Positions 27,421 through 59,478 are shown, numbered from the whole stretch's first letter. The stretch: DNA of 63,617 bases, filler included, from Asterionella formosa (GCA_002256025.1; 20 parts of 20 records of this genome joined end to end with filler, not necessarily neighbours in it), one strand, 5' to 3'. The notes: generated by a model from the sequence alone, not told the origin. Program-made: numbers and translations.

Positions 27421-29200
27421 GCCGACAAGACGTCTGCAATTAAAAAAAACCATGCATATAGGATCAAGGGTATCGTACGCTAAGTGGCACAGGATTTTCG
27501 TATAAATGATTATTTTGGATCAAAATTATGATCAAGGTATCCTATAACTATGATGATTTATTAATATTTTACCAACCTTTAAGTATAATGATAATAAGAA
27601 CATTATCATCACACAATGTATATCAGCTGATCAACAACATTACTCATCAACTTCATAAACCTTCTCATATTATTTTCAATTCTCGTGATTGCCCGATGTA
27701 AATTAGCTATTACTACAACGCATCCTAAAATCAGCTCAACTCTATGCTATCATGTGAATTGTTTCATCGTTAATCTATCGTAAACATGATCATAATTCTA
27801 ATCACAAGCATTGTTCAAAATAGATGGTGAAAGGGATCGTAATTTAACTATCAAATTAAGCAATGCTATCTATTATTCTACATGCCAGCGACCCAATGTT
27901 TCTCTCTCTACCTGGCTCACAGTATATTGTTCCTGTCTCGCCAATTTCTTCCTCTTTTCTGAATCTTGTGCCAAGCAATGCCTTACTAATGTTGCGTCTC
28001 TCTCCCTGCTGTTAGTGTCATTCTGAACTCGCCGACTATTCTGTTGTTTGATCGGTTTTATTGTCCTATGCAGTGACAGTACCAATGAGAAGGAACAACT
28101 TGTTAGCTAGACATGTTACACCGACACAACATCACGCCATTCCATCGTATCATCTTGCTTGCTTCACTTACCACAGCCAAATCAAAGCAAATGATGCATA
28201 AGTCTGTAATAGCAGTAAATTGTCAGTAGCTAAATTCTTGAATAGGTAAGTATCAGGTTGCTTTCCAATGTTGCCGAATAAAACTTACCGATTCATTTTC
28301 GTTACCTTAACTTTGAGAGAAGGTAAAGTGGCGTGTCCGTCAGTTATGTTCCATCAGAAGTGAATAAGTCCAATGACAAGAGCACTTACCAATTTTGTTT
28401 TGTTTTGTTTTACATTGGTGCTCCCCAACAAGCGAAACGAGCTGTTGAATCAACTGAGAAAAAAGGAAATGTGCGTTTAGTTTACAATTTGTTGTGTTCC
28501 TACCTCCCAACGATTTTCATCCAAGTACCACATTGATGGCTTCATTACCTTAAACATACTCCATCCATCGAAGGCGCAATGTGTAGAAGCCACAATGTTT
28601 TTCGTTATTGCGTAAACTTTTCCTTTCTTGTCATGTGCTTTACGATATTTCTTTTCATGAAGCAGGCATTGTTTGTTAGCTAACATGACAGAACGATTTC
28701 AAATATACTTGCCATGTATATAATTGTAAAATTTGTAAAAATATATATGTATCAAGTGTCGTAAATTTTTAAAAATCAAAGGCACTCTCAATATGGAACG
28801 TCTGGTATTGTTGAGATGATCATATTTGCATATAGATAATTCGAAAATATTCAATGCACGATATGTCCATTGTTTTCCACGACTTGGTGTACCGGTACTT
28901 TTTTTTGAAATTTTTTTGCATCGATATTTTCTACGTCTGTTAGAACAAATTATTTACTTGCAGACCATTCAAATGGTGTACTAAGTCACAACCCATTTGT
29001 ATCATTATTTATACGCAAGGATTCTGGTAGCAAATTGTTTAAGCCCCTTATTTGGGCGGGAGTTCTTCATGTGTACCGGTACATCATACAACAATAACAT
29101 TTTATCATAAATATACAGAGCACCAGTAGCAGGTAGGAAGTGATATACTGGGGATACAGGTAGTCACAGTACCAGGTAGTAAAGGGAAGAACAGAACACC

Positions 29201-29715
29201 ATATGTTCATGACTGTTGCTACTGCAGTGGGACAGCAAATCATAATAGTTTTAGGATCGTATGATCAAAAAATTGAAAAAGGATAGTCGGAGTAGTAAGC
29301 GAGCAACAGAGCACTATATGGTAACGACTGCTGCTACAGCAGCGGGACATTAAATCATCACATTTTTAGGATTGTATGATCATAAAATTGAAAAAGAATA
29401 GTCGGAGTAGTAAGCGAGCAACAGAGCAACATATGTTCATGACTGCTGCTAATGCAGTGGGACTGTAAATCATCATAGTTTTAGGATCGTCTGATCATAA
29501 AATTGAAAAAGAATAGTTGGAGTAGTAAGCGAGCGACAGAAAACCATATGTTCATGACTGTTGCTACTGCAGCGGGACAGTAAATCATCATATTTTTAGG
29601 ATTTTACAATCGTAAAATTGAAAGAGAGTAGTCGAATATGTTTATGACTGCTGCTACTGCAGCGGGACAGTAAATCATCATTTTTTTGGATTGTATAATC
29701 GTATAATTGAAAACA
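29201..29715 (+). repeat. 115-bp tandem array (about 4.7 copies)
   Basis: Units starting ATATG..CATGACTG.TGCTACTGCAG.GGGACAG begin at 29201, 29316, 29431, 29546 and 29636. Confidence 0.9.
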
Positions 29716-29920
29716 AGATATGCTATTACTCAAACTCGGTTCTGATTTTGTACATGATAATGTAAATAGCACTGTTGGTTTTATGGTATCAAATCTAGAC
29801 AGCGTAAAATATTATATGTAGTGGCTGATGATTCATTTCATTGTAGCGTGCATCATCCTGATTTTAAGATCATCGACCTTTGAGGAAGAGAACGACAACA
29901 GCTATCTAGTAGTACAAACA

Positions 29921-31830
29921 ATGTCTTCAAAAAACCATAAAAAGGTTCATGGAAACAAGCGACATGTGGCAAATACTGCCGGTATGGAACAAAGAAGCAA
30001 GTATAAATGAGTTAACAAAGAAAAAGCGAACAGGCGATTATCCAGAGGAACCCAATCGGCGACAGGGAGTTAGTGGGGGTACTACCCCATCGTCGATGGG
30101 TACCCAATCAGCTACTAGTACAAAGGCTCCCGTAACTGATACTGAAAGTGATGATGACGTTTCTTTTTCAGTTGATGATACAAGAAAAATGGCTCCTGTC
30201 GATGATACCATTAATAACTCCCGGATGCAGATGGACAACATGGTACCATATCATAAATTTTCTAATCGCACGGACCAACAAGTACATGACAAACTTAGGG
30301 AAAAACATTTTGCGCTTGCGAAAGGATATTATCATTTGGTCAATGAACTCAATCACTACAAAGGTCGTAATTTGGTTCAAAACTCGTCCATACGAGGTTA
30401 TCAAGAATCTTCAATTTCAGCAGCCTTATCAGAACGTCGTTCCCACTTAGCTAAAATGTAACCGATCCATCAATTGTAACAAAGGTTGTGAGTTGCTTTT
30501 ATTTTCAAGACCAAGAAGTTTTGCTGTGAACATGTAATTTTGAGGTTATAGTTCTCGAATTGCAGGTACTGTAAAACAGAATATCAATCAAATGTGCTTT
30601 TTTCTGGTCCCAAAAGAGAATCAAACATCCCGCCCTGCCTATCTGGTCCAAGTAGTATGATCGGCATTTCCAATCACAAACAGGATTGTTTTGCCGAATG
30701 TTGCCTGACTCGGCTATACACAGTGAAATCGGAGTTGGGCAAAGAAGTGGAGCGAGAGTGACCCAGAGCTTGGCGACTTCATATGGAATGGTTCTGATGC
30801 ACTACTTCCGATGAATCAGACCATTGAACATATCAACAAGGCACGTTTACATTATATTAAATCAACATTTGGTGGCATGTGCATTAAAATGTTGAGATAA
30901 TGTCAGAATGTATTGAATAATCAATTTAAAGGAATCTTAGGTAAGTTCTTGCAGGGCGGGAGATGCTCTGAAAACATGATGTTTTGAGTCAGTGATTATA
31001 TTCTTATCAAATATGTTTGAAATAAAAATGCTAACATAATTCATGACGCGCCAGCTGGTCTAACAGAATATAGCTAAGGATATTGATGACTTTATTAGGT
31101 GGGCGTTCACGCTTTATCGTTTTGCGCAGTCAAAGTCAAAGGACATTGACAGGGGAAGCCAGGCCAAGGATACCAAGTCTGGCGTGATGTTCTTGCTCCA
31201 GTGTATTTTATAGGCAAGACAAGCCGTGGAGAACCATTTTTAACAGGAGACAAATCTGGTGTGACCAAATTTCAACTAAGTCTTCGGGCACAATGTGAGT
31301 TGCAATCAAGAACGTTTTGTTGGTTCGCTGATCAATGCCAGTACAGAAGCCTTTTGCTTCTTGCTGCTGAAAGGAAAATTCTTATTGCAACAAAATTATT
31401 TGGCTTTCAATCCAAATACGCAGGACATTTCAGAGAACGATATTCGTCATTCTACTGATTTTGTCGACATTGCTTGGTGGGAAACCACTTATCAAAAAAG
31501 TGTGAGGGAAGAAAGTTTAGTTTCAAATGGTCTCACTGATCAATGGACTGATGATGTTGATTTACTCGGTTATTAAAAGGAAATCTACACTGGACTTTCA
31601 CAAAAGAATCGATCTGAATATGGAAGGAATCCTAGTGGAAATGCTACTTCCACAACCAATATCATTTACTCACACTCATACTTCTCATTTCCCAATGTAA
31701 ATGAAGAGGATATGCATCAATATTTTGAACCGCTTCAACCAAATGTTCCTGAGAAGAATATTAATTACAATGAACGCATTAATCAACGGGATATTGATGA
31801 CAACGTTGATTTTGAATGGATCTAATAGAA
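29921..31830 (+). pseudogene. Element accessory gene A, probably multi-exon, disrupted
   Basis: MSSKNHKKVHGNKR... is homologous to the longer intact ORFs at 54497-55514. It has frameshifts, and GTGAGT/GTAAGT donor sites conserved in both copies. Confidence 0.55.
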
Positions 31831-31999
31831 TCCAATGCGTGCTTAGTAGTTACATAATAAATATAGTTAGTGGGAGACTTCTACAATGCCATGAACAGCC
31901 ATTTAATTAGATGATCAAAGTAAACTGGTGGAAGGCAATTATCGTTAAGGAATAACATGAGTTCTAATTCGATTGGATGCGCGCATGTTTAGGGAATGT

Positions 32000-34946
32000 T
32001 TACTTGGAAGTTAAAACTGAGGAGGAAGGGGCATTTCCATTGCATTTTCAGGGAGAAAGCCGGTGTGATCTTGGAAATATGAATATTGCATGGTCTCTGA
32101 ATTCAATCCTTGGAGAGTTTTTAGTCTTTTGATGGAAGGTATCAAGCTCCATCCTAAAAGACTTTGGAAAAACGCATGGATATTTCTTTTCCACTAACAT
32201 TAGCTGGTGGTCAACTGTTGACCAAACAAATAAAGATTGATAACAATTCAAACATGATCATCCCACGCACACTCCATTATTTCGAACCAGTACAGCTCAT
32301 GGCAGGATTGTTACGTGATTACGATATCATGCAACATTTTGTATGTCACCCACAAGTGAAACTTACAACTTGTGGAGAACGCATAGATGACGAAGTAACT
32401 TCCGCGACTTGGTTTGAAAATGCATTCAACAATTCTCCTGCATCAGAAAATGGAGTGTTGAAGCAAAGACAGGGTGTCTATTTGTTGCCCTAGCAGTTTC
32501 AGTGATGGTTCACCTATTGATAAACAAATGAAACATTCCGAGCATCCGCTTTTGTTGACAATGTTAAACTTAATGTCAGAAGGAAGGAAAAAAGTTGATG
32601 GATGGCAAATGGTAACTCTTTTGCCAGACCCCCACATTGAAGTCAGTGATCTGGAGAAACAAATGAATAATAAGTTATCTGGTGACGACTTGTCCTTATG
32701 TCGACTCAAATTATACCATTCTGTTACAGGATTTCTATTGTCGCCTTTCGAAGAGGGATGCAAACAAGTCATACGATATTTGGGTTCATGGTCTTTGTAT
32801 GACAAAAGTTTATTTCCAGATTGGAATGACCATTGGTGATACAGAAGAGCAGAAAAAAATTTGTGGTTTCAGGGGTGGTAATGGATTATATCGACGATGT
32901 GTTTGTCGTGATTGCCTTGTTTCAACTGAAGATGCTGATAATCCTGATATTGGATGTGAACGTCGTACAGTGTCAGATGTTAAAATGTTTTTAAACAATT
33001 TTCTTGACAAAAATGCGCATCCCGATGGAAAATTACCATATATGTCTCCCAAACTAATGGCAAATATGCAACAGCAAATGAGTGGTGCCATGTATATCGC
33101 ACCATCCAGTCATGCCTCCACTAATAAATCATTTTTTTGGTTTGTGACAGAGGGAATATTTGGCGCAACTACATTTGAGGTTCCTCATCAATTACTACCT
33201 AGAATATTTAAGTACATTTTGGAATCATTGTACAATTATCGGACTATCCCTGAAGAATGGAAATGCTTTTTTAAAGAAAGAAAATCACCACAGCAGATAT
33301 TTCAGAGAACATCTCTGATCAGAAACGTATCACTGAAATAATATACACTGATTTAATTGATCAAGAGCAACCGAAGAAACCGTCAAAGACCGGAAAGGAG
33401 CGACAAACGCACCAGTTACCAAAAATATCTACACTGGCAAAAATCAAGAACCAACACTTGTACCAGCACCAGAAATGTATTTTTGAAACTATACTATACT
33501 TCGAACAAAGAGCTAGATATATCAATAGCTAGTCATTTGGAAAGCAAGGCAAAGCGATCGCGATATTCCAAAATTGTCATACTGATCTGGGATGACAGGT
33601 TTGTCAAAAATGTCAGGGCAAGAAATTCCCGGATTATGTCTGTTAACTATTTTTTCAATGGTGGAATGATGGGTTCAGAGAAAATGTACCTAGAAAAGGA
33701 TTTCACAATTCTGTCATGGGTATGTATATCTATCAATGACACTTTATTCATACCACAGTTTACATCAACATGTATTGACATTTTAGAGGAAAGGGTTAAG
33801 AGATTTATGTCAGTTACTAAGATTATGATTGGTCCCCAACGGGAAATGATATCTCAAATTGGCTTACGAATGGCAAGATTTCATGGAATGAAACATTACA
33901 CTCATCTGATAAGGAAGTTCGGATCTCCTCTTAATTTCTTTGGTGGATTTTTGGACTCTTTTTTGAAAGACAAATTGAAACGACCCAGTAAGCGAGTCAA
34001 TGGACAATTACATCGATTAAAGCATGATATGTATTTTAACAAGGTCATATGAAACAAGGCAGTTTGCCTTGGCACGAAATATTGTTTTTGCAAGTGATAC
34101 ATTACATACAAAAAACAAACAAAAGAAGATGAGTAAAGTAGTACATATGAATGTAACTGAGGGTATTTCAACAGAAATTGATTTCGAGGGAATGATTCAG
34201 GATACAAGGATGTTGCCTAGTATGTCGCCTGATTCACCGTCCCTTCCTGTTAAAGTTCAATTCTCTGCTTCATCATCAAATGGTCTATGGACTATAGCAG
34301 GTGTCCCTAATAAGTTTGGGCATGTATCACGGAGTAAGGATGCACCCTTTTCTCAATTGGTTCATCCTGATTTACCGACGGGGCCAACTAGTCTACGTCA
34401 AGAGCATTGCGAATTCAGCAATAGAAATAGCAAGAATAAACGTCTCGAAGATGGGCGGGGTTGGGCCTGTTTCCATTGTGAGGATTGACTTTTATTATCA
34501 TGTTAAAATTGAAAGTAACGTTCCTGGCCAAACTACTACTTTCAGATGCCATCAGCCATCCGAAATGGAATAATGATTCAAATGCAGGAATCTCTGGTCG
34601 GGAATGGTTTGACTGGGTCGAAGTGAACTGGGAGAAGGGAGATGGATCAAGTTCCTACACAGTTCCTGCAAAACTACTTCTTTGGGGAAATGTTATTTTC
34701 TCCAACACAACAACCATTCTCTTAGCGTGTATTCGTTCCTTGAAAAGTTCAGCTGACATGAAAATTCATAAATGTATGTTTTTTGCAAGAGGAGACACTT
34801 TATGCAATGATACAACTGAATTGAGCGTTGTTGAATTTCATAACATACTTTCGGCAGCATTTGTTGTTCCTGCTTTGAAATCACAGGAATCAAGGAAATC
34901 TCTGAAATCGCAAGAAGTTTTGGAACAGCCAATTACGAAAAGATAA
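32000..34946 (+). pseudogene. Plavaka-like (CMC/EnSpm-related) transposase, frameshifted
   Basis: Motifs in the expected order: ERIDDEVTSATWF, FSDGSPID..HSEHPLLLTMLNL, LYHSVTGFLL, IGDTEEQKKICG..CRDC, ARFHGMKHYTHLIRKFGSPLNFFGGFLDSFLKDKLKRP and WFDWVEVNW..PAKLLLW. Confidence 0.7.
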
Positions 34947-35049
34947 TTTTTATGTTGCCATGCCTCCACGTCATTTATGATAATCAATCGGGTGGGACCA
35001 AAAACTAACAAGCGAACGTTGATAAATATACAAGAATAATATAAATAAT

Positions 35050-37390
35050 AGTGATAATATAGTTTCACATACTAGTTAAGTTATTAGAAGGTTTTCACAA
35101 ACTAAAATGTCCTGAGGAATGATGAGATTGGATGATCCCAATGGTCCATTAGCTATTTGTTCTTTTTCACTCCCAAAGAACCTAAGATGGTCCTTCTCGT
35201 TTCGTCAGAAAATTTGCTTCTCCACTTTTCAACTGCAGTTCGATATGAGTCTGTAAACTTTTTCAATTTGATTCCAGAAGGGCTATCATATCATCAGTTA
35301 CAAAATATTATTCAACTTTTTGTCAATTATGATGCATCCAGAAATATGGCCAAGAGGTGCATGATTATACCGTCTGAAGGGAGCAACTTTTTCATTCGTT
35401 TGTTGGATCATGGATTTTACGTTGACAACATCATCCTTCTTGAAAATTAATTGCAAGGAAGTCGTCCAAAAACTTCGTTCAACATTTTTAAATCTAAATA
35501 GGAGCTCAAAATTTTGTCGATACAAAATTGAAGAAAATTTCTTATTTCCAACTGAAACATATCCTCACGAATGTTTGTCGTTGTCACTTGAGGCTAAACT
35601 GTTCCAAGATGAAAGTATGTTGACTTGGTTGGTTTGGTCAGATGTAACAGACAACAAGTAAATGGTCCACATGACCATCCACTGTCATCTTCTGGTTGAA
35701 ATAACATGGAATCATGTTCAGTGGCCATAATGATCTGCAATGGCGCCGTGCTTTGGTGCCATCATAAAAAGATTCCGATAAACCAACTTCTTCAGGTGTA
35801 TGGTATTCTTTTGGAAGATATCCTGTATCGGTACTTAACAATTCCAATTGTTTCGTGCATCCAGGGATGATGCAGTACTAACGGGCAAGGTCAAATACTT
35901 GATCATAATGTTCACCCAAACTTGCAACTTTTCCTGAATCACGGACTTGACATAATCCATCATTTATAGCAAAAAGATAATGCACAAAATGGTTGTTTTC
36001 CTCCTCGTCTGATCTTTTGCAAGAAACAATTAGCACATACAGTAGTTACTCTCATGATGAAGTGGATCACAATCACCTTGGTATATATACAGTTTGTCAT
36101 TACCCTTTTCTGGGATCTCATCCAAATCAAATATAATCTTTACATCAGTTGGATGAACTTCATGAAATATATAATGGATCATAGAGCAAGGTCATTGTTT
36201 CAAGGTGCTGTCCCAATATGCAAGATCTTTAAAATCTGAAGATGATTTTTTGATACCTTTGATTCCATAAATTACATAGGCGTAAAAGCATATTTCTTGT
36301 AGGGTACGTGTGTACAAATCTTTCCACAATTTTAGTTGTCCATGAGTTTTCGGCAAACTCAAGGAAAATGCAATTTGCTTTGGCATAATCACTCTACACA
36401 TTTCACATGCCGAGCGACTCTTCACAAAAGTAGGCTAGCTGCCTTTGGGATTGTTCTCAATGGTTTTACAAAGAAATACTATTCTCTTTCTTCCATGTTC
36501 ACTTCGTTCCCGACTCAGTGCATCAACTGCCTTAGCCAGCATGGTCATCACATCTCTGTCTGCATTGATCTAGTTCATGAATTCGAGGTCTTGATCTAGC
36601 TCGGACTTTTTCTTGAATACCTTTTCTTTTAGAAATACAATATGTTCTCTGCTCTGCTTTCATGATGTTCATCTTGATGGTCTGGACGAATAGTGAGACA
36701 TATTTCTTGGTTTTGCAACTTTTCAACCATTTCTACTTCAGAAGTGATGTCGCCCACAATTCCGCCGGTATTTTCATTCATCGCATGAATTTTTTCATCA
36801 AATGAATGAGAATCACTGAGTTCTTCTTCGTTATTATCGATTTCAGGAGAATGAGGAGCAAAATACGAAACTGGATGAAACTGTGACTCTGTAGGAATAT
36901 AGTCTTCATCCGCGATGAACAACTGTTTGGGTTTCCTTGCTCTTCGAAAGCAATCTTTCCCTCTTTTCAATCTCTACCACTTTTGAATCGCTTGGCATCA
37001 TACTTCATTATTTTTTCTGGAGTATTATGAGTCTGTTCAAATTCATTTGTTATTTGAGTGTACTCAAAGGAATCTTCGATTGATTTCATAAGTTTCTTCA
37101 TATTCTTTTCCGAAAACATAAAGTCGTGTAGTGTAAACAATGGAAGTAAGTCATGTTTCTTGTTTGACTGATCCCTTGCATGAAATCCATGAAATGCCAT
37201 TTTAAAAGGTGTCAAAGGGCCAGAAGACTATGATGTAAAACAGTGGGAGGGAAACACGGAGATTTTCGTGGCGCTTGCAGAGGTGCAGCTGGTGTGATGG
37301 TAACCGAGTGTAGTAATTGTTGAACAGAGCACAGCAGTGTAATATGCATGTTCCGCCAGCGTAGCGTTTACACAATACACATGCCGGCAT
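35050..37390 (-). pseudogene. Element accessory gene B, convergent with the transposase, Cys/His-rich N-terminus, disrupted
   Basis: Chain of short same-strand ORFs from 37390 (MPACVLCKRYAGGTCILHCC...HLCKRH) through 37215-36629, 36425-36192, 35847-35638 and 35525-35298. Confidence 0.4.
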
Positions 37391-37989
37391 AAATATAGCT
37401 ATAACAAGGAAAAACGACATGACAATGAACGTGATGGCTGGTTGTTGAGGATACCTGTATGTGATATGCATCAATCCATATCACAAATCATATTATTGTG
37501 ATGTACATATCAACACATCCGTATTCTTAGATCATATCCACCGTATAATACTATTGTATTAACTATTGGCTTTTACTGTATACATTAAAAGTCGAATTTA
37601 TACATTAAGTAACATAATTATGATATATTTATTTATTTATTGTGATGTATCGATAACGTACATCTTTTATCGTATTTTATTGTCATTGTATTATTTTAAC
37701 ATGATCATATTTTGATCAAAATTATATCATCAACACTTTAAGAAATCATCACAGTTCTATGATCAATGCATCATAGCTATGTGATATACTTTATTCAATA
37801 TTAAGTATCATACTTTGATGATATATGCATCGATGTAAACCTATCGTGATATCACATTATCATCTGATTAATCATGATGAGCGAGATGATTGGGAACTGT
37901 AGTATTCTGCATCGTACTACAGAGTATGATATTATAACACGCACTTTAGTAGCTAAGCAAGTCACTCCTGTAATGTAAACAAGTCGACA

Positions 37990-38470
37990 GTGCACATACA
38001 CACACGCTTATCAGGTTTGAGGCAACGGACAGTGGTTCCAACGAGCGAATGACGATACCACGGGTACCAATTTTTCCAGCAGCAAACCGCAATGATGAAT
38101 AAAACTTGTCCCGCTATTGATGAGGATGACACGGACACCGACTTTTCCAGGAGCAAACAACAATGAAGAGAGCCAGGCCACTTGTCGCTCTATTGATGGT
38201 AACAAAGATGCGGACAAGTTCAACAGTGAATACAAGAACAACATAACAATGAAAATGAGTCGGCAGTGTGTGTACGCACACACCAAGCAGGTTTGAGGCA
38301 ATGGACAGTTCCAACAAGCAAATGACGATACAGATATCAAATATTTCCTACGAGCAAACAACAATGAAGAGAGCCACTTGCTTTCGCTTTCTTGACGGTA
38401 TCAAAGATGCGGACAAGTTCTATAGTAAATACAAGTACAGCATGCCAAATGCAGAAACGAGCAACATGAA
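37990..38470 (+). repeat. Patchwork of internal direct repeats in the large element
   Basis: CAGGTTTGAGGCAA.GGACAG (x2), GAGCAAACAACAATGAAGAGAGCC (x2) and CAAAGATGCGGACAAGTT (x2). Homologous to 41990-42357 and 58410-58870. Confidence 0.75.
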
Positions 38471-39189
38471 AAAGAAATTGTACTCAGAATCATTCTATAA
38501 CTATAGCTATGTGGACAGTAGTCTGTTACGCACATTTTCGTATCTCCTTCTATGCTGAATCTCAATAGTAGATGTAGTATCATGTGAGAATTGAAAATGT
38601 CAACGAGAACAAGCAGAATGTGTTTGTTTACAAGTTGATTGGCAAGATTGTAATGCTGGTGGTCGACGAAACGGATTCACAATGTGCGCTGTGTGCGGAA
38701 CCATTACAAGTTCGAATGATTTCTTCTCTCCTGTAAACTCTTAATTGAATGATTATGAACAAAGGTTCACTGCACATGATGATTACTCAAAGAAATAATG
38801 ATCACATGACCAACAATTGAAGACGTCGTTATCGCAAACAATCATTCCACTTGTCATCGCTAGTATTTCGTTTTTGTTTCAAAAATCAGAGTGATGACGG
38901 ATGGAAATGACGAGCCAAATTACATAACTTCAGCTGGTACATTATCCTACCAAGAAACTCGAATACAGGAATCTAATAGAAACAATACATATAAAAATTA
39001 AATATTTGTAATCAAAAGGGTTACTATTTAAATTACAAGGGCATTTATCAAAATTATTAGATGATACAACGAAAAATTATGATCAGATGATCACAATTCT
39101 ATGATGCATCATGGAAATATGATAGTTTTTATTTGTAGACGTTGATGATTTTGATAAAGTTAGATAAATTGCTGGGAACAATTTTTCCA

Positions 39190-39697
39190 TGCTTTATTTC
39201 CTCAGATAGAACTGTTGAACTGAGGTATCACTCCCCAACAAGGTGGAAATGCCACACTATCGGCGGCGCTCTCTCAGCATTAATGCTCTCATATGCATGC
39301 CTAGGCTATGAGGCTGATCATCCATTTCGTTGCACAGGTAACTTGTTATAGTTAGAACTTCGCAACGGGAAAGAATATTCTTTGAAGTTGTTGACTTTTG
39401 ATGATGCAGACTACATCATTGTCCGTTTACATAATTCATCTTTCGCGATTACCACCTCTGCTATTGACCTTATCAGCCAATACCAGGAAACCATCCGGAC
39501 TCTATAATCTCATTCATTTTCGACTGGGCTGTCCAGGCTGGCGTGCTATGGAATCATTACTCAATGGAACAAGCGTTACGGGTCTCCTTTTGAATGTTCC
39601 TATACCAGACATATTCTCCTGTCCAATTTGTCTCAAGGAAAAACTACCCTCCTTATCCAGAGGTCCTACTGCTGAATCTCCTTTTCAAGGTAATTGG
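39190..39697 (+). mobile_element. Decayed Copia pol fragment (GAG-pre-integrase region)
   Basis: LIHFRLGCPG...SVTGL...FSCPICLKEK matches the H-RLG(H)...CxxC pre-integrase pattern. Confidence 0.55.
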
Positions 39698-39797: not shown

Positions 39798-41027
39798 AGT
39801 TAAGGAAGTGGTAGAAATTATTGATCGAGCTCAGAAGTTATTTGAATGTTTCCGCGACTATCGTGACTCTTTGAAGAACAAGGAGACAGCCACTGCTCTC
39901 AGAAAAGGCAGGCGACTTTCCAGTGGTAAGACTGAAGTGGTATATCTTCAGTTGTTGTGTGGACTGACGCTCCAGCCACTTGTCTCGTACGAAATCGAAA
40001 CGGCAAAATATCGGATGCAAATCGAACAGTTTGCAGAGATAGGGGCCCAGTTGTGTGCTGTTGGAGTGAAAGTTGCCATGCTATGGATCGTGGCTGGGGG
40101 AATGGCAAAAGCATTTGGGTATCCTATTCCCACGCTTCCAGGTGAAGTTGTGAACAATGTCAAGAATTTTCTTGATGAAGTGAACAAATCGTCACCTGTT
40201 GAGGGTCTGAAGGAATACAAGAAGTCTGGGTTCGACCTGAACAACCAGCTGAATGATTTAAAAAAATTTGTTGAAGCTCTGGAACGTAATGGTAAGATGT
40301 GCCATTGCTTGGAAGAGTTTGACAAGGAAGCGCTGAAATCCAGCTCTTGGCAGTTTGCGCTCAAAAAATATGTGCTTCCTGATTTGGCAAATTATGAAAA
40401 GCAAGTCATATTTATCTCTGTCCACTTGAACAACAATTTTTCTGCTGACGCAGGAGAACTTGAAGAAATTGATAATGGCTTGCAAGCGATTGAAATGAAC
40501 ATGCAAGCAATTGATAATTTAATGCAACCGGTTGATAATAATTTCCAGGTCGTTCAATCCAACATCAAGGATGTGGATGTGATAACTGAAAATGAACGTT
40601 TGCTGTATGCCCAGTCTGTGACACTCCAATACATACAGTTGAGCATCGACCGAATCCCTGATTTGATGGTTCATTTCCCGTACATGTTTATCCTTCTCAC
40701 CGCTGACGATTTTCAAACATTCAAGAGCACATTGATGCCCAAGTCGTCAATGGATAAACGAGGTCGCGTTGGAGTTAAGGAAGTGGTAGAAATTATTGAT
40801 CGAGCTCAGAAGTTATTTGAATGTTTCCGCGACTATCGTGACTCTTTGAAGAACAAGGAGACAGCCACTGCTCTCAGAAAAGGCAGGCGACTTTCCAGTG
40901 GTAAGACTGAAGTGGTATATCTTCAGTTGTTGTGTGGACTGACGCTCCAGCCACTTGTCTCGTACAAAATCGAAACGGCAAAATATCGGATGCAAATCGA
41001 ACAGTTTGCAGAGATAGGGGCCCAGTT
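39798..41027 (+). CDS. Partial ORF with an in-frame 975-bp (325-aa) repeat; resembles C-terminal regions of stramenopile LRR-ROCO-type proteins
   Basis: Open across the whole contig. 39798-40052 is near-identical to 40773-41027. Motifs include FPYMFILL, VYLQLLCGLTLQP and AGGMAKAFGYPIP. The family assignment is from memory. Confidence 0.55.
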
Positions 41028-41596: not shown

Positions 41597-42357
41597 ATAT
41601 TAACTGTTGACTTTAACTTTATAAATTAAACGACAAATATATATATTAATTAACATCCTTTATGATTGCTTGATTTATATTCTATGATGTCTTGGTAACA
41701 CTTGCGTACATATTTAATCGTATTTTATTGTCATTGTATTATTTTAGCATAATCATATTTTGATCAAAATTATATCATAAATATTTTATAAAATCATCAT
41801 AGTTATATGATCAATGTATAATAACTTTGTGATGTACTTTTTTCAATATTATCAATGTAGTAACCCTAACATGATATCACAGTATCATACATGATTTGAT
41901 TGGGAAGCAACTGTATTCTGCATCGTGCTACAGGGTATATTATTATATCACGATATTTAGTAGCAAAGTCACTCCGCCTGTAATGTACTAAAGTCGACAG
42001 TGCACATACACACACGCTAATCAGGTTTGAGGCAATGGACAGTGGTTCGAACGAGCGAATGATGATACCACGGGTACCAATTTTTCCAACGAAAGAAGCA
42101 ACTTGTCTCTCTATTGATGAGGATGACATGGACATCGACTTTTCCAGGAGCAAACAACAAACAACAATGAAGAGACCCACTTATCGCTCTATTGATGTTA
42201 ACAAAGATGCGGACAAGTTCAACAGTGAATACAAGAACAACATACTATTGAAAACAAGTTGACAGTGTGTGCACGCAAACGCCAAGCAAGTTTGAGGCAA
42301 CGGACAATTCCAACAAGCAAATGATGATACAGATATCAAATTCTTCCTACGAGCAAA
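41597..42357 (+). mobile_element. Copy of the 37.55-38.35 kb segment of the large element
   Basis: Colinear similarity including the ATTTTGATCAAAAT palindrome. Confidence 0.85.
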
Positions 42358-44147: not shown

Positions 44148-45017
44148 TTACATGGCATATCTATTTGCATTCCAATGCAAATAGGGCATATACACTGAAG
44201 CAATTTGGTTCTGACCAACTTTGCTAGCACGAAAGTTGTAGAGCAATACAATCATTTGGAGAATTGATTTTCTCTCACCTTTTTCTTCATAACGAAATTT
44301 TTCTTTGATTCTCGGAAATGATCCCTGAATGCATCGCATTCCCCATTCCGACAGCTGTCGGATGGAGGTGGCTTGGCGATTCATACCAAATCTTTGTCGA
44401 GGATTACCATTTGCATCAACATTGTTTTGATGTGATTTCAACATTGCATTTGATTTTTTAGATGCAAATGCTGAATCCACAACTACTTTTTTGCCTGTAT
44501 CCCTGTAAACTGTTTCAATCTGATCATAGATCGATGACCAAATTGCCATGGTGGAGTCATGTAGAACACCAGGTGCATTGAAATATGAGCAGCGAATTTT
44601 TCCATCAGGCGAAAAAAGAAACAAGTTTGTCACATAGTGTTCATGGGTCTATCCATTGTAGAAGTTGTTCTGCAGTGTTTCATTTCCAGCCCGTTGCAGG
44701 GTCAGTTTCAGACCATCCATTGCTCCCCAACAATTTGTTATAAGTGGGTATTTCTGATTGATCATGGTTGCAAACAAGGTGGCTTCGTCTACAGTAGGCA
44801 GTCTCACAACGGCATCTTCATGTGTCAGCAGTACTTTTACAATCATTCGCCTTGAAAACCTCAACCAAACACTCAAAGAACCATGAGTTAATCCGAAAAT
44901 AATCTGAAGAATCATATAGGAACCACGAGTCCTGGTCCATGCTAACCCAAGCGCTAGACAACTGATGGAACAGAGGTATCTTTGCCGACCTTTCTTTGTT
45001 GTTGAATTTCTAACAAT
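44148..45017 (-). pseudogene. PIF/Harbinger DDE_Tnp_4 transposase with a premature stop
   Basis: WGAMDGLKL, FYNG*THEHYV (TGG to TAG at 44649-44651), NAPGVLHDS, VVDSAF and RQLSEWGMRCIQGSFPRI. Confidence 0.9.
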
Positions 45018-45344
45018 NNNNNNNNNNNNNNNNNNNNNNNNNNNNNNNNNNNNNNNNNNNNTTAATTAATTAANNNNNNNNNNNNNNNNNNNNNNNNNNN
45101 NNNNNNNNNNNNNNNNNGGGGGGGGGCCGGGGGGCAGCGCTTTGACTTTCACAGTCTCTCTACAGAGCTGCGACAGAAAATAATAGGGAAAAACATAGTA
45201 CCACCATAACCGTAGGTGCTACTTAAAGGTGCTGATAAAAGATGTACACGTACTACCTGGTACCGGTAGTAACTCGTCAGCCTGGCTAATTATCGCGCCA
45301 GTTAAATTCATAAAAGCAATATTATGATAACTACCGGGTAGGTA

Positions 45345-46347
45345 TGCCAGAACATTTGGTGTTCTGTTGCTCGCTTATTACTCCGACTATTGGTTTTTAG
45401 TTTTACGATCATACAATCCTAGAACTATGATGATTTATTGTCCCACGGTAGTAGCAACAGTCCTGAATATATGGTGTTCTATTGGTTTTTAGTTTTACGA
45501 TCATACGATCCTAAAATTATGATGATTTACTGTCCCTCTGCAATAGCAGCAGTCATAGACATTTCGTGTTCTATTGGTTTTTAGTTTTACGATCATACAA
45601 TCCTAAAACTATGATGATTTACTGTCCCACTGCAGTAGCAACAGTCCTGAACATATGGTGTTCTGTTGCTAGTTTACTACTCCGACTACCCCCATTATAT
45701 CTGTTACTACCTGCTACTCGTACCCTGTATATATATATGATACATTGTTATTGTCATATGATGTACCGGTACACATGAAGAGCTCCCGCCCAAAAAAGGG
45801 GCTTAAACAATTCGCTACCAAAACCCTTGCGGCATTTGAACGGTCTAAATAATTAGTTTCGACGGCCGTAGAAAATATCGATGCAAACAAATTTCAGAGA
45901 TAATACCGGTACACGTACCAGTAGTCGTGGAAAACAATGGACATATACCGGTAGTGCATTGAGTATTTTCGAATTATGTATATGCGAGTATGGCCATCTC
46001 AACCATATCAGATGTTCCATATCGAGAGCGCCTTTGAATTTTACACTTCATATATATATATATATATATTTACAAATTTTATTACTATATTCATGGCATA
46101 TATATTTTTCAAATCGTTCTGTCATGTTAACAAACAATGCCTGCTGCTTCATGATAAGATACGTCGTAGTAAAGCACATGACAAGAAAAGAAAAATTTTG
46201 CAATACATAACGAAAAACATTGTGACTTCGACACATTGCGCCTTCGAAGGATGGAGAATGTTTAAGGTAATGAAGCCATCAATGTGGTACTTGGATGACA
46301 ATCGTTGGGAGACAGGCAGCACAACGACAAATTGTTAACTATACGCA
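45345..46347 (-). mobile_element. Inverted copy of the 28.47-29.5 kb segment of the large element, including array units
   Basis: Colinear similarity, e.g. GTTTAAGGTAATGAAGCCATCAATGTGGTACTTGGATGA is shared. Confidence 0.85.
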
Positions 46348-48228: not shown

Positions 48229-48300
48229 CCACGTTTGTTAATAATAATAAAAGTGAACGCGGTTATCGCTAGAGTTTAGATCTATACAACAGCATTTTGA

Positions 48301-49006: not shown

Positions 49007-49105
49007 NNNNNNNNNNNNNNNNNNNNNNNNNNNNNNNNNNNNNNNNNNNNTTAATTAATTAANNNNNNNNNNNNNNNNNNNNNNNNNNNNNNNNNNNNNN
49101 NNNNN

Positions 49106-51664: not shown

Positions 51665-51764
51665 NNNNNNNNNNNNNNNNNNNNNNNNNNNNNNNNNNNN
51701 NNNNNNNNTTAATTAATTAANNNNNNNNNNNNNNNNNNNNNNNNNNNNNNNNNNNNNNNNNNNN

Positions 51765-52480
51765 TGTCTGGTATTGTTGAGATGATCATATTTGCATATA
51801 GATAATTCGAAAATGTTCAATGCACAATATGTCCGTTGCTTTCCACAACTTCGTGTACCGGTACTGTTTCTGAAAAAAAATTTGCATCAATATTTTCTAC
51901 GTCCATTGGAACTAATTATTTAGACCATTCAATTGGTGTAAGTCACAACCCGCCCATTTGTATCATTATTTAAATGCAAGGATTCTGGTAGCTAATTATT
52001 TAAGCCCCTTTTTGGCGGGAGTTCTTCATGTGTACATCATATGATCATAACATTTTATTATATATACATACAGAGTACCAGTAGCAGGTAGGAAATGATA
52101 TACTGGGGGTAGTCAGAGTAGTAAGCGAGCAATAGAGGAATTTCATAAGTTCACGACTGTTGCTACTGCAGTGGGAAAGTAAAGTATCAAAGTTTCAGGA
52201 TTGTATGATTGTAAAATTGAAAGGGGGTAGTTCAGGACAGTTGCTACTGTAGTGGGACAGTAAATCATCATAGTTTCAGGATTGTACAATTGTAAAATTG
52301 AAAGCAAGATATGCTAGTACTCAAACTCAGTTCTGATTTTGTATATGATAATGTAAATAGCACTATTGGTCTTATGGTATCATATCTAGACAACGTAAAA
52401 TATTACATGTAGTGGCTGATGATTTATTTCATTGTAGCAACACCTGATTTTAAGATCATTGAACTTAAGACAACAGTTAT
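51765..52480 (+). mobile_element. Copy of the 28.8-29.9 kb segment of the large element with a contracted array
   Basis: Colinear similarity; only about 2 array units. Confidence 0.85.
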
Positions 52481-53093
52481 TGCTCTTCTGGGCCGCAACC
52501 TTAGTACTGGTAGCTAATTCTCTTGCTCATTATCTATTTGTTACCTGGTTACCTGTATCAGGTACCTGGAACCAGGGGTACTTACCAAAAGTAAAATACA
52601 CTTTTCTAACATAGGTCTACGGTGTTGCAAGCATAAAAATATATAAGGAAAAAGTTCCTTGGCAGCGTGCAATAGACATGTAATCCACTGATGATTGACA
52701 CCACCATGATGATGAGTCAAAAATCTGTTATTATTTTCTACTTCTGCAGCTACTACCAGGAATAAAGTACAGTACCTGGTACCAGTAGTAAACAATAGCA
52801 CGTAGCCGATACATTTACAGGAGTGTATGAAATACATGGAGCAACATTGAATGAATGGTTCTCTTCGCTCCCAAGCAGTGTGCAGTCCAAATGCTATGAT
52901 GGAATCCGCAAGCGAGACCATGATGAGTCACTTTTCTACTCAGTCATTTTCGAGTACCAGGTATTAATAATACATTTAGCTATCATAATGATGNNNNNNN
53001 NNNNNNNNNNNNNNNNNNNNNNNNNNNNNNNNNNNNNTTAATTAATTAANNNNNNNNNNNNNNNNNNNNNNNNNNNNNNNNNNNNNNNNNNNN

Positions 53094-53910
53094 GTCACTC
53101 AAGACTGCAATGTTATATGTTGAGGATGCAGATGCCCAGCTAGCAATTGCCCACATACACAACAATCATTTAAACAAAGTGCGTACATTCAAGTCTATAT
53201 TTGTCAAGGTGACTACAGCTACACTAGTATTAAACCTACCATCGGTGGTTTTTCAGTGCGAAATTTCGGAGCTTTCTACAAGGTATGTACATGATCGATT
53301 GAATGTCCCAAGGTCACACCCAAGCTCCTTCAGTCCTGCGCACATCTGTACCCTTGCTATGAGCTACGTACGGCCGCAGAATGCCAATGAACAGCTCGAG
53401 TTATTTTTGAACGAGCTAGCTACCCCTCGTGCAGAAAAATTACGCAGCCTGATCAACATTGTGGTACATGCACGAGTTATGAAGAATGAAGAAAATCGGA
53501 TGTATTCTAATGCTATTGCTGCTACTACAAGTTATCAAGATTCAACAAAGGAAAATGGTTCTACTAACACAGTTTATGCAATTGGAATAACGGATGCTGC
53601 TACCATCCCCACAGCACCAAAGAAAAACCGGAAAAGTGGGTCCATAGAATTTGACGAGATTTTTGAGGTTGCAAAAACGAAAAATTCTCATGAGAAGCTT
53701 GAGTTGATCTTGAATCTTGCAAGAAAAATGGAGCGTCTCCTCCACTCAGATGTCACTGAAAGGATGCGACTCTTTGATGTAAAATTCATCAAGCCGATCA
53801 TCGCATGCTTCCTGAATCATTGCGACAGCAACAAAGACACTTTCCACAGTCTCCATCCCCAGTTCCTCCACTCAAAATTCTCCAAAGGTTGCGGATGTAG
53901 CAAAGGTTGA
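53094..53910 (+). CDS. Partial ORF of unknown function, possibly TE-derived
   Basis: Open for at least 266 codons, ending in a Cys/His cluster (CFLNHC...HPQFLHSKFSKGCGC). Confidence 0.4.
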
Positions 53911-54422
53911 TTGTAGAGTAAATTGGTTAGTAAAACAAAAGAAATTGCATGTTAGCGATAGCAAGAACCAGTGACCGCTTTCAATCATCACATTTGGTGA
54001 GTTTGCTGTTTATTTGCATTTCTGTGTGGTGATGTGCAAGATGCAACGTTGGAGATGAATATTGAAAAGGTGCACATGCGCAACAATAATATTTCAAAAT
54101 GACTTCGTGACGTCATGTCGCCGCTGCACCACATTGCACCACCATAGACCTACTGGGACTACTACCGGTATGTCTGTATTGCGTTGAATACTCCTGTACC
54201 AGGTACCAGGTACTCCTACTGGTAGAATGCAAACCGGAAGGCCTGAGCAATGATACAATGTTTCTTCCAGATGACGAAAAAATGCATCAATCTTCTTAAC
54301 AAATATAGCGGGGTTCCGAGGANNNNNNNNNNNNNNNNNNNNNNNNNNNNNNNNNNNNNNNNNNNNTTAATTAATTAANNNNNNNNNNNNNNNNNNNNNN
54401 NNNNNNNNNNNNNNNNNNNNNN

Positions 54423-55651
54423 GCAGCGAAACAGTAAATGAATTTAAGATCATCGAACTTTAAGGAAGACAATGACAACAGTTATCAAGTAGTACAATGT
54501 CTTCAAGAAACCATAAAGAGGTTCATGGAAACAAGCGACCTGTAGCAAATACTGCCGGTATGGAACAAAGAAGCAAGTACCACAATGATTTAACAAAGAA
54601 AAAGCAAATAGGCGATTATCCAAAGGAGCCCAATCGGCGATTGGGAGACGTTGGGGGTAATACCCCATCGTCAATGGGGACACTATCAGCTACTAGTACA
54701 AAGGATCCCGTAATTGATACTGACAGCGATGATGATGTTTCTACTTCAGTTATTGATACAAGAAAATTGGCTCCTGTTGATGATACCATTAATAACTCAC
54801 GGATGCAGGCGCAGATGGACGACATGGTACCATATCATAAATTTTCTAATTGCACGGACCAACAAGTACATGACAAAGTGAGGGAAAAACATTTTGCACT
54901 TGCCAAAGGATCTTATCAATTGGTCAATGAACTCAATCACTACAAAGGTCGTAATTCGGTTCAAAACTCCTCCATACGAGGTTATCAAGACTCTTCAATT
55001 TCAGCTGCCTTCATATCAGAACGTCGTTCCTGCTTACCGCTTAGCTAAAATTGAACCGATCCATCAATTGTCACAAAGGTTGTGAGTTTTATTTGCTTTC
55101 AAGACCAAGAAGTTTTGCTGTGAACATGTAAGTTTGATGTTGTAGTTTGTGAATTGCAGGTACTGTAAAACAGAATGTCAATCAAATGTGCTTTTTTCTG
55201 GTCCCAAAAGAGAATCAAACATCCCGCCCTGCCCATCTGGTCCAAGTAGCATGAAAGGCATTTCCAATCACAAACAGGATTGGTTTGCCGAATGTTGCCT
55301 AACTCGGCTATACACAGTGAAACCGGAGTTAGGCAAAGAAGTGGAGAGTGACCCAGAGCTTGCCGATTTCATATGGAATGGTTCTGATGCACTACTTCCA
55401 ATGAATCAGTCCTTTGAACGTACCAACAAGGCACGTTTAGATTACATCAAATCAACATTTGGTGGCATGCGGCCTGCATTAAAAATTGAGAGAATGTCAG
55501 AATGTATTGAATAATCAATTTAAAGGAATCTTAGGTAAGTTCTTGCAGGGCGGGAGTTGCTCCGAAAGCATGATGTTTTGAGTTGGTGATTATATTCTTA
55601 TCAAATATGATTCAATTTAAAATTGCTAACGTAATTCATGACACACCAGCT
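54423..55651 (+). mobile_element. Copy of accessory gene A region (29.87-31.06 kb) of the large element
   Basis: ORFs 54497-55048 and 55149-55514 align with 29921-30920. Confidence 0.9.
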
Positions 55652-55752
55652 NNNNNNNNNNNNNNNNNNNNNNNNNNNNNNNNNNNNNNNNNNNNTTAAT
55701 TAATTAANNNNNNNNNNNNNNNNNNNNNNNNNNNNNNNNNNNNNNNNNNNNA

Positions 55753-56980
55753 ATGTTAAATACACTTGAAGAAAACAAAACATTTTACACTGAACGTCAA
55801 TTTCAGAGAGCTAAGCGAGCTCGTGATCTATTTCATGCCTTGGGTACACCATCAATTAATGATTTCAAGGCAATAATTCGTATGAATACGATCAACAATA
55901 ATCCAGTGACTACCGATGATATCAAAATTGCAGAGAAAATTTTTGGACCTGACATCAGAACACTAAAAGGCAAGACAACTCGTCGCAAGCCGCTGCCAGT
56001 CGTGAACGACTACATCGAGATTCCTAAGGAGCTTATCCAAGCTCAACGTGAAGTGACTCTTTGCATGGATGGAATGAAAGTCAATGGACAATCATTTCTC
56101 ACAACAATTTCTCGAAACATTATGTATAGGACAGCGCAATGGGTCAAGAATCAGACAGCTGAAGTCTATCGAGATGCTTTGATTCAGGTATTCCGTGTTT
56201 ATAATACCAGAGGATTTAAAATTACAACAATCCACTGTGACAACGAGTTTCGACCTTTGATGGAACAAATTTCCAATGAATTTCAAGTCACTATGAACTA
56301 CGCAAACCCACAAGAACATGTTCCCGAAGCGGAGCGAAATAATCGAGTGATTAAAGAACGCGTGCGCGTAGCTTATCATCGATTACCTTTCAAACATTTG
56401 CCGCGACTGATGATTAAGATTCTAGTCACAGAATCTGCAAGGAAACTGAATTTCTTTCCGGCAAAGAACGGGATATCCCCGTATTACAGTCCTTGTATGA
56501 TTTTACATCAACGAAACCTGGACTATGCTCGACATTGCCAGTATACATTTGGCACTTATGTCCAAGCACATGAAGAACCTGTGTTTTCAAACACAAATGC
56601 ACCTCGCAGCCTAGATTGCATTTTTCTACGCTACAATGACAATGTGCAAGGAGGTCATGAATTGTTACACCTACCTACAAATTCATTGATCACTAGACGA
56701 ACAATTACTCCTCTACCACTTACCCCAGCAATCATGAATCAAGTACACGCCCTTGCTGTGCAGGAAAATATGCCAGATGGTCTCAAGATAGCAAATCGAA
56801 CGGGGCAACTATTTTATGATAGTGCTTGGATTGCAGGAGTGGATTATGATAATGAAGCATTTGAAGATGCACAAGATGAAGATTATGAAGATCAAGATGC
56901 TAGTGACAACGAAAGCAATGATGAAATTCTCGGAGAAGAAGACTATGATGAAATGACTCCGGATGAAATATATGAAGCAG
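55753..56980 (+). mobile_element. Ty1/Copia integrase fragment, open frame
   Basis: ARDLFHALGTPS, LCMDGMKVNG, IHCDNEF, EHVPEAERNNRVIKER and FGTYVQAHEE. Confidence 0.92.
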
Positions 56981-57080
56981 NNNNNNNNNNNNNNNNNNNN
57001 NNNNNNNNNNNNNNNNNNNNNNNNTTAATTAATTAANNNNNNNNNNNNNNNNNNNNNNNNNNNNNNNNNNNNNNNNNNNN

Positions 57081-57672
57081 ATCCATTGTCAAGTACTACA
57101 CAAAATTAGTCAAGATTTTCCCAAGAGAAACGACAGAGCAAGGCTGGAAAATGACAAAGTTTCATCAGCAGATGCATACTGTCCGAAATATCGAACGGTT
57201 TGGCAGTCCGCAAGTTTTCAATGGTGGACCAATGGAAAAAAATTTAAAATTCCTTTGCAAGTTACCAGCTAAAACATCTCAAAAACGACATCACCTAATG
57301 GACCTTCAATCTGGACAACGAATTATCGAAAACATTGCCATAGGTGTTGCATGTCGGGAATTTTTGGGAAAAGATCCTTTTGAACATGACGATACAGATT
57401 CGCTCGCCGATGATGGTTCTACTAATGAAACACCAAGCACTGGGACTGACAGTATAAGCACATCTACAGGTGGTGCACGCTTTATCTTAAAGTTACAGGA
57501 AAATAATGGTGGATTCGCTATTGCATCTGTCACTTCCAATTCGGCGACTATAAAGACATCAGGAGTTGACCTTGATTTAATTCGATTTCTAGGAAAGGAA
57601 GTGCTTCCCTTCATAACCAAAAAGTCAATTGAGGTCCTGTGTGAACACAAACGAGATTTTTATGGGAGGTAA
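57081..57672 (+). mobile_element. C-terminal part of a second Plavaka-like transposase family
   Basis: GWKMTKFHQQMHTVRNIERFGSPQVFNGGPMEKNLKFLCKLPAKTSQKR, the same motif as 33870-33990 but highly diverged. Confidence 0.7.
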
Positions 57673-57783
57673 GAAATGAATTGTTATTATCAATATTAGT
57701 ATTATTCTCATTTACTATCTAACACTAACGTCATCACAATTGTAATGTTGGTAAGTTCTTGCATATATGCCACCAGTGATTAG

Positions 57784-58309
57784 GGTACGAAACGACCTGG
57801 GGAAGGCAAAAACTCCAAGTACCGCTAGTATCCCTCCCACAGCCTCTTCAATTAGCGATCTTTCGGGCACTTCACCAGCAACTGAAAGAAGCAGCATTCC
57901 CTTAAGAAATCCAATTCGTGTTGATGGTTCTTTCCCACGGCCACCCAATGTGGCCTCGCTACCAACAAGGGAAGGAAATGTGACACCATCAGAAAATGAA
58001 CTTAATGGAATGTCAGGAAGTTCTATTAAAAGCTTATCGAATCGCTCACAAAGTTCGACTAAAACACCAACTACTTTGAACCAGGTGCAAGTTAACTGGA
58101 AATCATCGTTGGACAAGGATTTTATGAATTGTAAGCGCCAAGGGATGGCTATTCTGGTTATGGAAGCCATGACAAAACGTAAGGAACGTCATTACCTGAC
58201 AGTTCCCAAAGAACACCAAGAGATGTTAAAGGCAAACAACAACTATAAAGCATTCTACCAGATGACTATGGAGGATCTCCATGACAGTGACATTCCTGAG
58301 TATAGGCGA
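57784..58309 (+). CDS. Ser/Thr/Pro-rich multicopy ORF, near-identical to 61635-62160; probably TE accessory
   Basis: Near-identical duplicate in another contig; adjacent to the Plavaka-like fragment. Confidence 0.55.
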
Positions 58310-58409
58310 NNNNNNNNNNNNNNNNNNNNNNNNNNNNNNNNNNNNNNNNNNNNTTAATTAATTAANNNNNNNNNNNNNNNNNNNNNNNNNNNNNNNNNNN
58401 NNNNNNNNN

Positions 58410-59478
58410 TATCGCTCGCTCGTTTCTGCATTTGGCATACTGTACTTGAATTAACTATTGAACTTGTCCGCATCTTTGATACCATCAAGCAAGAGAGCGA
58501 AAGCAAGTGGCTCTTTTCATTGTTGTTTGCTCGTAGGAAGAATTTGATATCTGTATCGTCATTTGCTTGTTGGAATTGTCCGTTGCCTCAAACTTGCTTG
58601 GCGTGTGCGTGCACACACTGTCGACTTGTTTTCAATGGTATGTTGTTCTTTGTATTCACTGTTGAACTTGTCGCGACAAGTGGGTCTCTTCATTGTTGTT
58701 TGCTCCTGAAAAAGTCGGTGTCCGTGTCCGTGTCATCCTCATCAATAGAGAGACAAGTTCTTTCGTTGGAAAAATTGGTACCGTATCATCATTCGCTCGT
58801 TCGAACCACTGTCCGTTGCCTCAAACCTGATTAGCGTTTGAGTACCGGTACCCGGTATGTGCACTGTCGACTTTAGTACATTACAGGCGGAGTGACTTCG
58901 CTACTAAATTGCGTGATATAATAATATACCCTGTAGCACGATGCAGAATACAGTTGCTTCCCAATCATCTCATCATGATTGATAAGATGATACTGTGATA
59001 TCATGATAAGGTTTCATCGATGCATACATCACCGAAGTATGATACGTAATATTGAATAAAGTACATCACATAGCTATGATACATTGATCCTAAAATTATA
59101 ATGATTTTATGAAATGTATATGATATAATTTTGATCAAAATATGATCATGTAAAAATAGTATAATGACAATAAAATACGATAAAATATGTACGCAAGAAG
59201 TGTTATTGATACATCACAGAATATAAATCAAGCAATCATAAAGTATGTTAATTAATATATGTGTTTGTCGTTTAATGTATACAGTTAAAGTCAACAGTTA
59301 ATATGATAGTATTATACAGTGGATAGGATCTAAGTATACGGATGCGTTGATATGTACATCACTATAATATTATTTGTGATATGGATTGATGCATATCACA
59401 TACCGGTATCCTCAACAATCAGCCATCACGTTCATTGTCGTGTCGTCTTTCCTTGTTTTAGCTATACCGGTATATATG
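58410..59478 (-). mobile_element. Inverted copy of the 37.39-38.47 kb segment of the large element
   Basis: Colinear reverse-complement similarity. Confidence 0.85.

Follow-up and report, generated by a model that had tools for sequence, protein, structure and literature searches.

The window analysed here is a stretch of 63,617 nucleotides from the freshwater diatom Asterionella formosa, made up of 20 contigs separated by spacers of the form N44-TTAATTAATTAA-N44, and the subject of this report is a class of short units within it, in which a C..G core such as CCGG or CCWGG is flanked by TA on both sides. Two contigs are long (1-19801 and 19902-39697), followed by 18 of about 1.23 kb each; the non-spacer bases amount to 61,717 (61.7 kb), and word counts were taken over these. 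The spacers occupy 19802-19901 and 18 further places, so that repeats lying within the window are repeats between contigs. Comparison of 67 open reading frames (ORFs) with Pfam revealed a eukaryotic, intron-poor gene content, including phosphoglycerate kinase (PGK), a cytochrome P450, a family-3 GPCR, a proteasome subunit and an Hsp70-like protein, together with mobile-element genes, namely copia-type reverse transcriptases (copia, RVT_1) and two PIF/Harbinger transposase fragments. The best named relatives of the PGK are from diatoms, with Grammatophora oceanica at 85% followed by Attheya, Thalassiosira, Striatella and Fistulifera; public assemblies also contain a PGK relative at 93% identity. 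The DNA is present in 20 of the 24 public DNA runs listed, from 16 studies and labelled as algae, freshwater or lake metagenomes.

To what extent the TA-flanked units exceed chance was assessed against the mean counts of second-order Markov simulations of the contigs. With 100 simulations, the TA-flanked palindrome TACCGGTA was observed 27 times for an expected 0.58, TACCWGGTA 20 times for 0.55, TACCSGGTA 5 times for 0.13, TACCAGTA/TACTGGTA 14 times for 2.18 and TACAGGTA/TACCTGTA 6 times for 2.46. Expressed by core, this is a 47-fold enrichment for CCGG, 36-fold for CCWGG, 6.4-fold for CCAG/CTGG and 2.4-fold for CAGG/CCTG. These core sites total 72 over the sequence, 41 of them on the two long contigs. 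TA stands on both sides of 27 of the 110 CCGG and 20 of the 98 CCWGG occurrences, and TACCGGTA is the highest-ranked 8-mer by third-order Markov expectation, its kin heading the list of 9-mers. The observation made in an earlier note on this DNA is borne out as real and striking, more strongly than it had been put there. With 60 simulations, TACATGTA was not enriched (2 observed, 2.2 expected) and TACCATGGTA was absent from the 61,717 bases (0.1 expected). Another palindrome, TAGCTA, was counted 31 times for an expectation of about 10, the largest of the 60 simulations giving 18; part of this excess is due to repeat copies.

Diverged copies of repeats on separate contigs, 72-89% identical, show how the units come to differ between related sequences. 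We made three-way alignments of family A (A1 at 28.5-29.3 kb; A2 at 45.6-46.3 kb, reversed; A3 at 51.8-52.2 kb) and family B (B1 at 37.4-38.5 kb; B2 at 58.4-59.5 kb, reversed; B3 at 41.6-42.4 kb); family G aside, the internal tandem array 29176-29714 was excluded. What the earlier note had described as copies of a large element are more exactly worded as diverged repeats on separate contigs. The two families, both non-coding, contain seven changes of TA to TA-C..G-TA in 1,970 aligned columns, and no TA-C..G-TA insertion was seen in families C-G (3,311 aligned columns, mostly retroelement coding parts). The units in and around these repeats are as follows.

28890-28897, TACCGGTA common to all three A copies (also 45904-45911 and 51856-51863)
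29074-29081, TACCGGTA in A1, also in A2 at 45764-45771; plain TA in A3 at 52033-52034
29155-29162, TACAGGTA in A1 alone; GGTA in the other two copies, with a G/A difference beside the TA
29170-29178, TACCAGGTA in A1 alone; clean 7-bp insertion with the TA duplicated, absent from A2 and A3
45916-45923, TACCAGTA (TACTGGTA on the opposite strand) in A2 alone, from the three-way alignment of family A
45946-45953, TACCGGTA in A2 alone, from the same alignment
58843-58857, stacked pair TA-CCGG-TA-CCCGG-TA in B2 alone; single TA in B1 (about 37997) and B3 (about 42007)
59465-59472, TACCGGTA at the edge of family B, flanks unalignable
45254-45340, TA-CCTGG-TA-CCGG-TA and TACCGGGTA; copy at 61305-61391, 98% identical

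In six of the seven cases the inserted unit is confined to one copy, and the other two lack it. The remaining one, at 29074, does face a single TA in the third copy, as the earlier note had it, and its polarity is ambiguous because A2 carries TACCGGTA too. The proposed insertions at 29170 and 58843-58857 were recovered cleanly, the latter against a single TA in two copies, and that at 29155 is indeed unique to A1. For 45946 and 45916 the uniqueness held; in place of TA, the sister copies have GA/AA and TT at these positions, which implies one extra substitution each. The unit at 59465 had been set against a plain TA near 37396; it lies exactly where homology ends, so that it cannot be counted as an insertion. 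The TACCGGTA at 28890, shared by all A copies, predates them. Over seven alignments we tabulated 43 indel blocks of at least 3 bp, and in six of these the TA is exactly duplicated, the cores being C, C, CCGG, CTGG, CCGG and CCGGGTACCGG; exact duplication together with a C..G core characterizes four blocks (five units). The units TACAGGTA at 29155 and TACCAGGTA at 29170 come in addition; they are split or shifted in the indel tabulation and clear in the pairwise and three-way alignments. Compared with their sister copies, two unrelated sites (28956-28961 and 41700-41705) also carry the hexamer ACTTGC as an insertion; at 37 occurrences for 35.6 expected (60 simulations) the hexamer is not enriched, and we regard this as coincidence.

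Homology between contigs twice stops at, or a few bases from, a TA-C..G-TA unit (45332-45345 with 61383-61396; 59465-59472), and in the pair formed by 45254-45340 and 61305-61391 it ends at the second unit, which may reflect rearrangement at excision breaks, or chance. The TACCGGGTA of this pair is centred in a near-perfect palindrome of 29 bp (61373-61401, flanks ttatgataac / gttatcataa).

Variation between natural samples was assessed by aligning Logan contigs of four public runs (X1, X4, X7 and X17, with partial coverage in X4 and X17) to contig 1. At 15989, six letters are missing in X1, X4 and X7, which come from three studies and are each represented by one contig at full depth, so that the TACCGGTA at 15990 is a plain TA in these three runs. 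Further length differences, obtained by arithmetic on long pieces rather than from the inserted letters themselves, are listed below.

62-6943, X4, 17 letters more and 6 fewer
1718-2373, X7, 7 more
7262-7827, X4, 7 more
14113-18355, X4, 18 more and 6 fewer
14173-14849, X7, 18 more
16493-17907, X7, 7 more

The gap totals of six long pieces are 6, 6, 7, 7, 7 and 18, with 23 and 24 in two others. In X4, the 18 letters gained and six lost over 14113-18355 mean that 11 of the 12 core sites of this span are shared, and the contigs of both X4 and X7 carry 18 extra letters within the region upstream of the Hsp70-like gene (14207-14790). The additional 7 and 18 letters in these two runs probably represent further units. 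The TA-flanked sites are real; they are fixed for the most part, with some polymorphism. A comparison of the Hsp70-like protein with public metagenome contigs gave 114 pattern matches and no relatives, and a 24-base word of the proteasome gene had no match in public metagenome contigs or in genome contigs; accordingly, these searches gave no counterparts of the loci in other strains or species that could be aligned.

The direction of change could in principle be the reverse, with palindromes being ancestral and a plain TA resulting from a precise 6-7 bp deletion between two TAs. The presence of the 29074 unit in two of three copies, and the absence of the 15990 unit from three runs with no outgroup, would agree with such a history. 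However, six of the seven units occur in one copy with two copies lacking them, and deletion alone cannot create a 47-fold excess of a word, which makes this reversal highly improbable.

Units are frequently stacked and share their TAs, as in TA-CCTGG-TA-CCAG-TA-CCAGG-TA at 1943 and TA-CCAGG-TA-CCAGG-TA (TACCAGGTACCAGGTA) at 54197. The latter stack, the arrays at 14263-14286, 14442-14468 and 23807-23829, and the abundance of GGTACC (37 observed for 11 expected, 60 simulations) could indicate that slippage or short templated copying multiplied a few GGTACC-type founder units locally. Such secondary copying seems distinctly unlikely as a general source, since the isolated units at 29074, 58843 and 15990 have no template nearby and stacks often mix orientation and core type, as at 1943 (CCTGG-CCAG-CCAGG), unlike the products of simple slippage.

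On the two long contigs the units are distributed unevenly with respect to genes. The listed ORFs cover 11,032 of the 39,597 bases (28%) and contain one of the 41 sites (25025), while 29 of the 41 fall in the stretches preceding six ORF starts, which make up 6,198 bases (15.7%); the two convergent 3'-3' spacers are free of sites. Overall there is about 1 unit per kb, a density that rises to about 4.7 per kb upstream of genes, where the following clusters and single site were found.

1676-1964, five core units (one triple stack) in a 397-bp divergent spacer between two ORF starts
6725-7372, five core units upstream of the cytochrome P450 ORF
14207-14790, six core sites and decayed units upstream of the Hsp70-like ORF
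15990-15997, TACCGGTA, about 110 bp ahead of the ORF for the proteasome subunit
17854-18017, four core units upstream of ORF 17038-17649
23041-24054, seven core units (one triple stack) upstream of ORF 24210-25433

This concentration upstream of genes, together with the identity of the diatom word to a published oomycete motif, neither of which featured in the earlier note, brings in a regulatory explanation. Among the over-represented promoter motifs of P. infestans, Roy et al. 2013 (PMC3597505) report M94, which is TACCGGTA, and M93, which is TACATGTA, the latter with 4150 promoter hits. Seidl et al. 2012 (PMC3520976) report TACATGTA upstream of 12,070 Phytophthora genes, and Bharti and Thines 2023 (PMC10031896) describe ATACCGGTAT upstream of 206 Plasmopara genes. 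A 2024 study (PMC11134190) reports, from yeast one-hybrid and gel-shift assays, binding of PsMyb37 to TACATGTA; in the passages cited here, this is the only one of the oomycete motifs with a reported binder. The diatom and the oomycetes, two stramenopile lineages, thus have the same 8-base palindrome in excess upstream of genes, and the sister motif TACATGTA has the form of a classic Tc1 scar. The two differ in that the oomycete motifs are treated as transcription-factor sites, whereas the diatom word is seen arising by an insertion that duplicates TA, and in that TACATGTA, abundant in oomycetes, is not enriched in the diatom.

If TACCGGTA were a selected cis-regulatory palindrome, recognized by a dimeric factor as proposed in oomycetes, its abundance would reflect function, and the placement of 29 of the 41 sites upstream of ORF starts, the empty convergent spacers and the published M94, M93 and ATACCGGTAT motifs, with PsMyb37 binding to TACATGTA, would all be accounted for. 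Yet this leaves unexplained the 6-7 bp insertions with TA duplication, including those in decaying retroelement copies, as well as the head-to-tail stacking, and the 15990 site is not fixed. The constant half-site spacing expected of a binding site also fails, cores of four bases being enriched 47-fold and cores of five bases 36-fold. Taken as the origin of the units, selection for such a site is unlikely; it is compatible with an origin by transposon excision if scars were later put to use.

Cut-and-paste transposons of the Tc1/mariner type are known to leave a duplicated TA around a short palindromic core when they excise, and this arrangement is the signature of their scars. The footprints of Tc1 and Tc3 in Caenorhabditis elegans are TA-CA-TG-TA, and those of Sleeping Beauty are TAC(A/T)GTA. 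The inverted repeats of the mariner-type element Mos1 begin with CCAGG/TCAGG, and its scars consist of TA, three bases and TA. The diatom units resemble the Tc1, Tc3 and Sleeping Beauty footprints in the duplicated TA, in a core that could derive from the first bases of both inverted ends and in a gain of 5-7 bp; they differ in having a CC..GG rather than a CA..TG core, and in that no parent was seen in the sequence. With respect to mariner-type tips, an end starting with CCA or CCAGG would give CC, CCA and CCAGG cores; no such repeat was found in the sequence. The Tc1 footprint taCATGta is given by Seidl et al. 2012 (PMC3520976) with reference to Eide and Anderson 1988. According to Seidl et al., such footprints are rare in worms, in contrast to the diatom units, which occur about once per kb and are often stacked. 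In the passages cited, they consider a Tc1-footprint origin of TACATGTA and dismiss it on the grounds of abundance and conservation. A limited library of literature contained no paper on such units in diatoms and none reviving a scar origin.

These comparisons lead us to favour, with a probability of roughly 0.55, the interpretation of the micro-insertions as excision scars of a TA-targeting cut-and-paste element of the Tc1/mariner type with CC(A)...(T)GG tips. In this model, a transposon of the Tc1/mariner/IS630 kind, with tips 5'-CC(A)...(T)GG-3', would have inserted at and excised from TA dinucleotides repeatedly, the TA being duplicated at each insertion. After excision, two or three terminal bases from each end of the element would remain at the flanks, and end joining would seal these into TA-CC-GG-TA or TA-CC-W-GG-TA, with CpG decay or point mutation later producing CCAG, CTGG and similar cores. 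Insertion may be biased towards accessible regions in front of genes and towards non-coding retroelement sequence, selection would remove scars from coding DNA, and stacks would arise by re-insertion into the TAs of old scars. The TA duplication, the palindromic or quasi-palindromic C..G cores, the size of 6-7 bp, the stacking and the presence or absence between populations all fit scars of this type. Tips of CCA and TGG would further explain the observed spectrum, in which the combinations CC+GG, CCA+GG, CC+TGG, CCA+G and C+TGG are enriched and CAGG/CCTG barely so, although CCAG/CTGG could as well derive from CCGG by CpG decay. The enrichment of both four- and five-base cores fits variable end joining, unlike a fixed half-site spacing. 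The micro-insertions with their duplicated TA, the enrichment, the bias towards promoters and one polymorphism between populations are observed directly; the role of a transposon, the sequence of its tips and the geometry of its cut are inferred from them.

Several observations weigh against excision as the source. A search for pairs of TA-CC..GG-TA sites 40-9000 bp apart in the sequence with matching inverted repeats found none, and no Tc1/mariner transposase domain was detected by Pfam among the 67 ORFs of the 61.7 kb. A parent that leaves no trace in 62 kb leaves the central step unproven. At 15990 the empty and scar states were both observed, and no occupied state appears among the alignment rows listed. 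The simplest tip model does not predict the five CCSGG sites or the zero count of CCATGG cores. The concentration upstream of genes is equally expected of a selected regulatory site. Moreover, for three of the seven inserted units an additional base difference has to be assumed in or next to the TA, which is not surprising given the 20-28% divergence between copies, and a comparison of three copies gives the direction of events only where all of them stem from a single source. Excision by a CC...GG element, as the earlier note proposed, therefore gains from the TA duplication, cores, size, stacks and variation and lacks a parent or transposase in the sequence; of the allele triplet it had envisaged, the empty and scar states are in hand. 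An element that is low in copy number and active for a long time could leave far more scars than copies, so that its absence from 62 kb is not decisive.

Other candidates for a parent were examined and set aside. Pairs of TA-CC..GG-TA sites with at least 12 of 16 end bases matching proved to be chance or footprint-chain pairs only. General inverted repeats were mostly contig spacers, and the real pairs (8421/10113 and 46507/47675) have no CC..GG tips. Clustering of the 20 bases following each TACC gave no shared sequence apart from known repeats and stacks, and a 22-base word to which a loose end at 7203 had pointed has a single occurrence in the sequence. The ORF at 24198-25433, situated between dense clusters, encodes a hydrophobic N-terminal stretch and no transposase features. 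The sole DDE transposase fragments are of the PIF/Harbinger type (DDE_Tnp_4), at 44151-45017 on the minus strand and 62433-63544 on the plus strand; they lie on two of the 18 small contigs, on which no element ends are visible. PIF/Harbinger elements duplicate TWA, not TA.

That no parent element occurs in the sequence would favour a process without any transposon, in which staggered breaks at TA in open DNA are filled in and a few C are added to each 3' end, giving CC..GG. Breaks in open chromatin would also fit the promoter bias, and all four bases occur at the centre of the five-base cores (20 W, 5 S). On the other hand, the W-biased centre and the constant CC and GG look templated by a fixed sequence, and a specificity for TA typifies a single transposon superfamily. 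Addition of a constant CC at each of the two ends is not known from any end-joining pathway. We consider repair of this kind doubtful.

Should the excision interpretation be correct, it might extend beyond this diatom. We tentatively suggest that stramenopiles host a scar writer, either a long-lived and highly active cut-and-paste element or a tamed descendant, whose scars (TACCGGTA in the diatom, TACATGTA and TACCGGTA in oomycetes) would accumulate in open DNA upstream of genes and later be read by Myb-related factors; as part of the same tentative proposal, a promoter motif that ranks among the most abundant in oomycetes, and its diatom counterpart, would have been born as transposon scars. 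Such later use as regulatory sites would reconcile the insertion structure with the promoter bias. Transposon scars are usually deemed rare curiosities. If the interpretation is true, one type of scar is the most over-represented word in this sample and the main class of small promoter indel, and it continues to vary from one natural population to another. A promoter motif of oomycete plant pathogens, published yet without explanation, is directly linked by this finding to a mutational process, and if that link holds, regulatory words can be supplied by transposon excision rather than by the transposon sequence itself.

Some further features of the contigs were noted. The family-3 GPCR (ANF receptor and 7tm_3) at 2038-4789 is split across the overlapping frames 2038-3936 and 3764-4789, which is due to an intron, a frameshift or an assembly error. 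The contig at 39798-41027 has ends of 255 bp that are 99.6% identical (39798-40052 and 40773-41027) and one frame open throughout (409 amino acids, no Pfam match); it looks like a tandem or circular coding unit of 975 bp. The regions 6611-10576 and 17848-19801 have a public-run depth 20 to about 1000 times that of neighbouring genes and are therefore high-copy repeats. Among them is a small inverted repeat resembling a hairpin (8194-8271); its arm word GGGGGTCCAGGACAATGAA reappears at about 8790 and at a contig end, at 50335.

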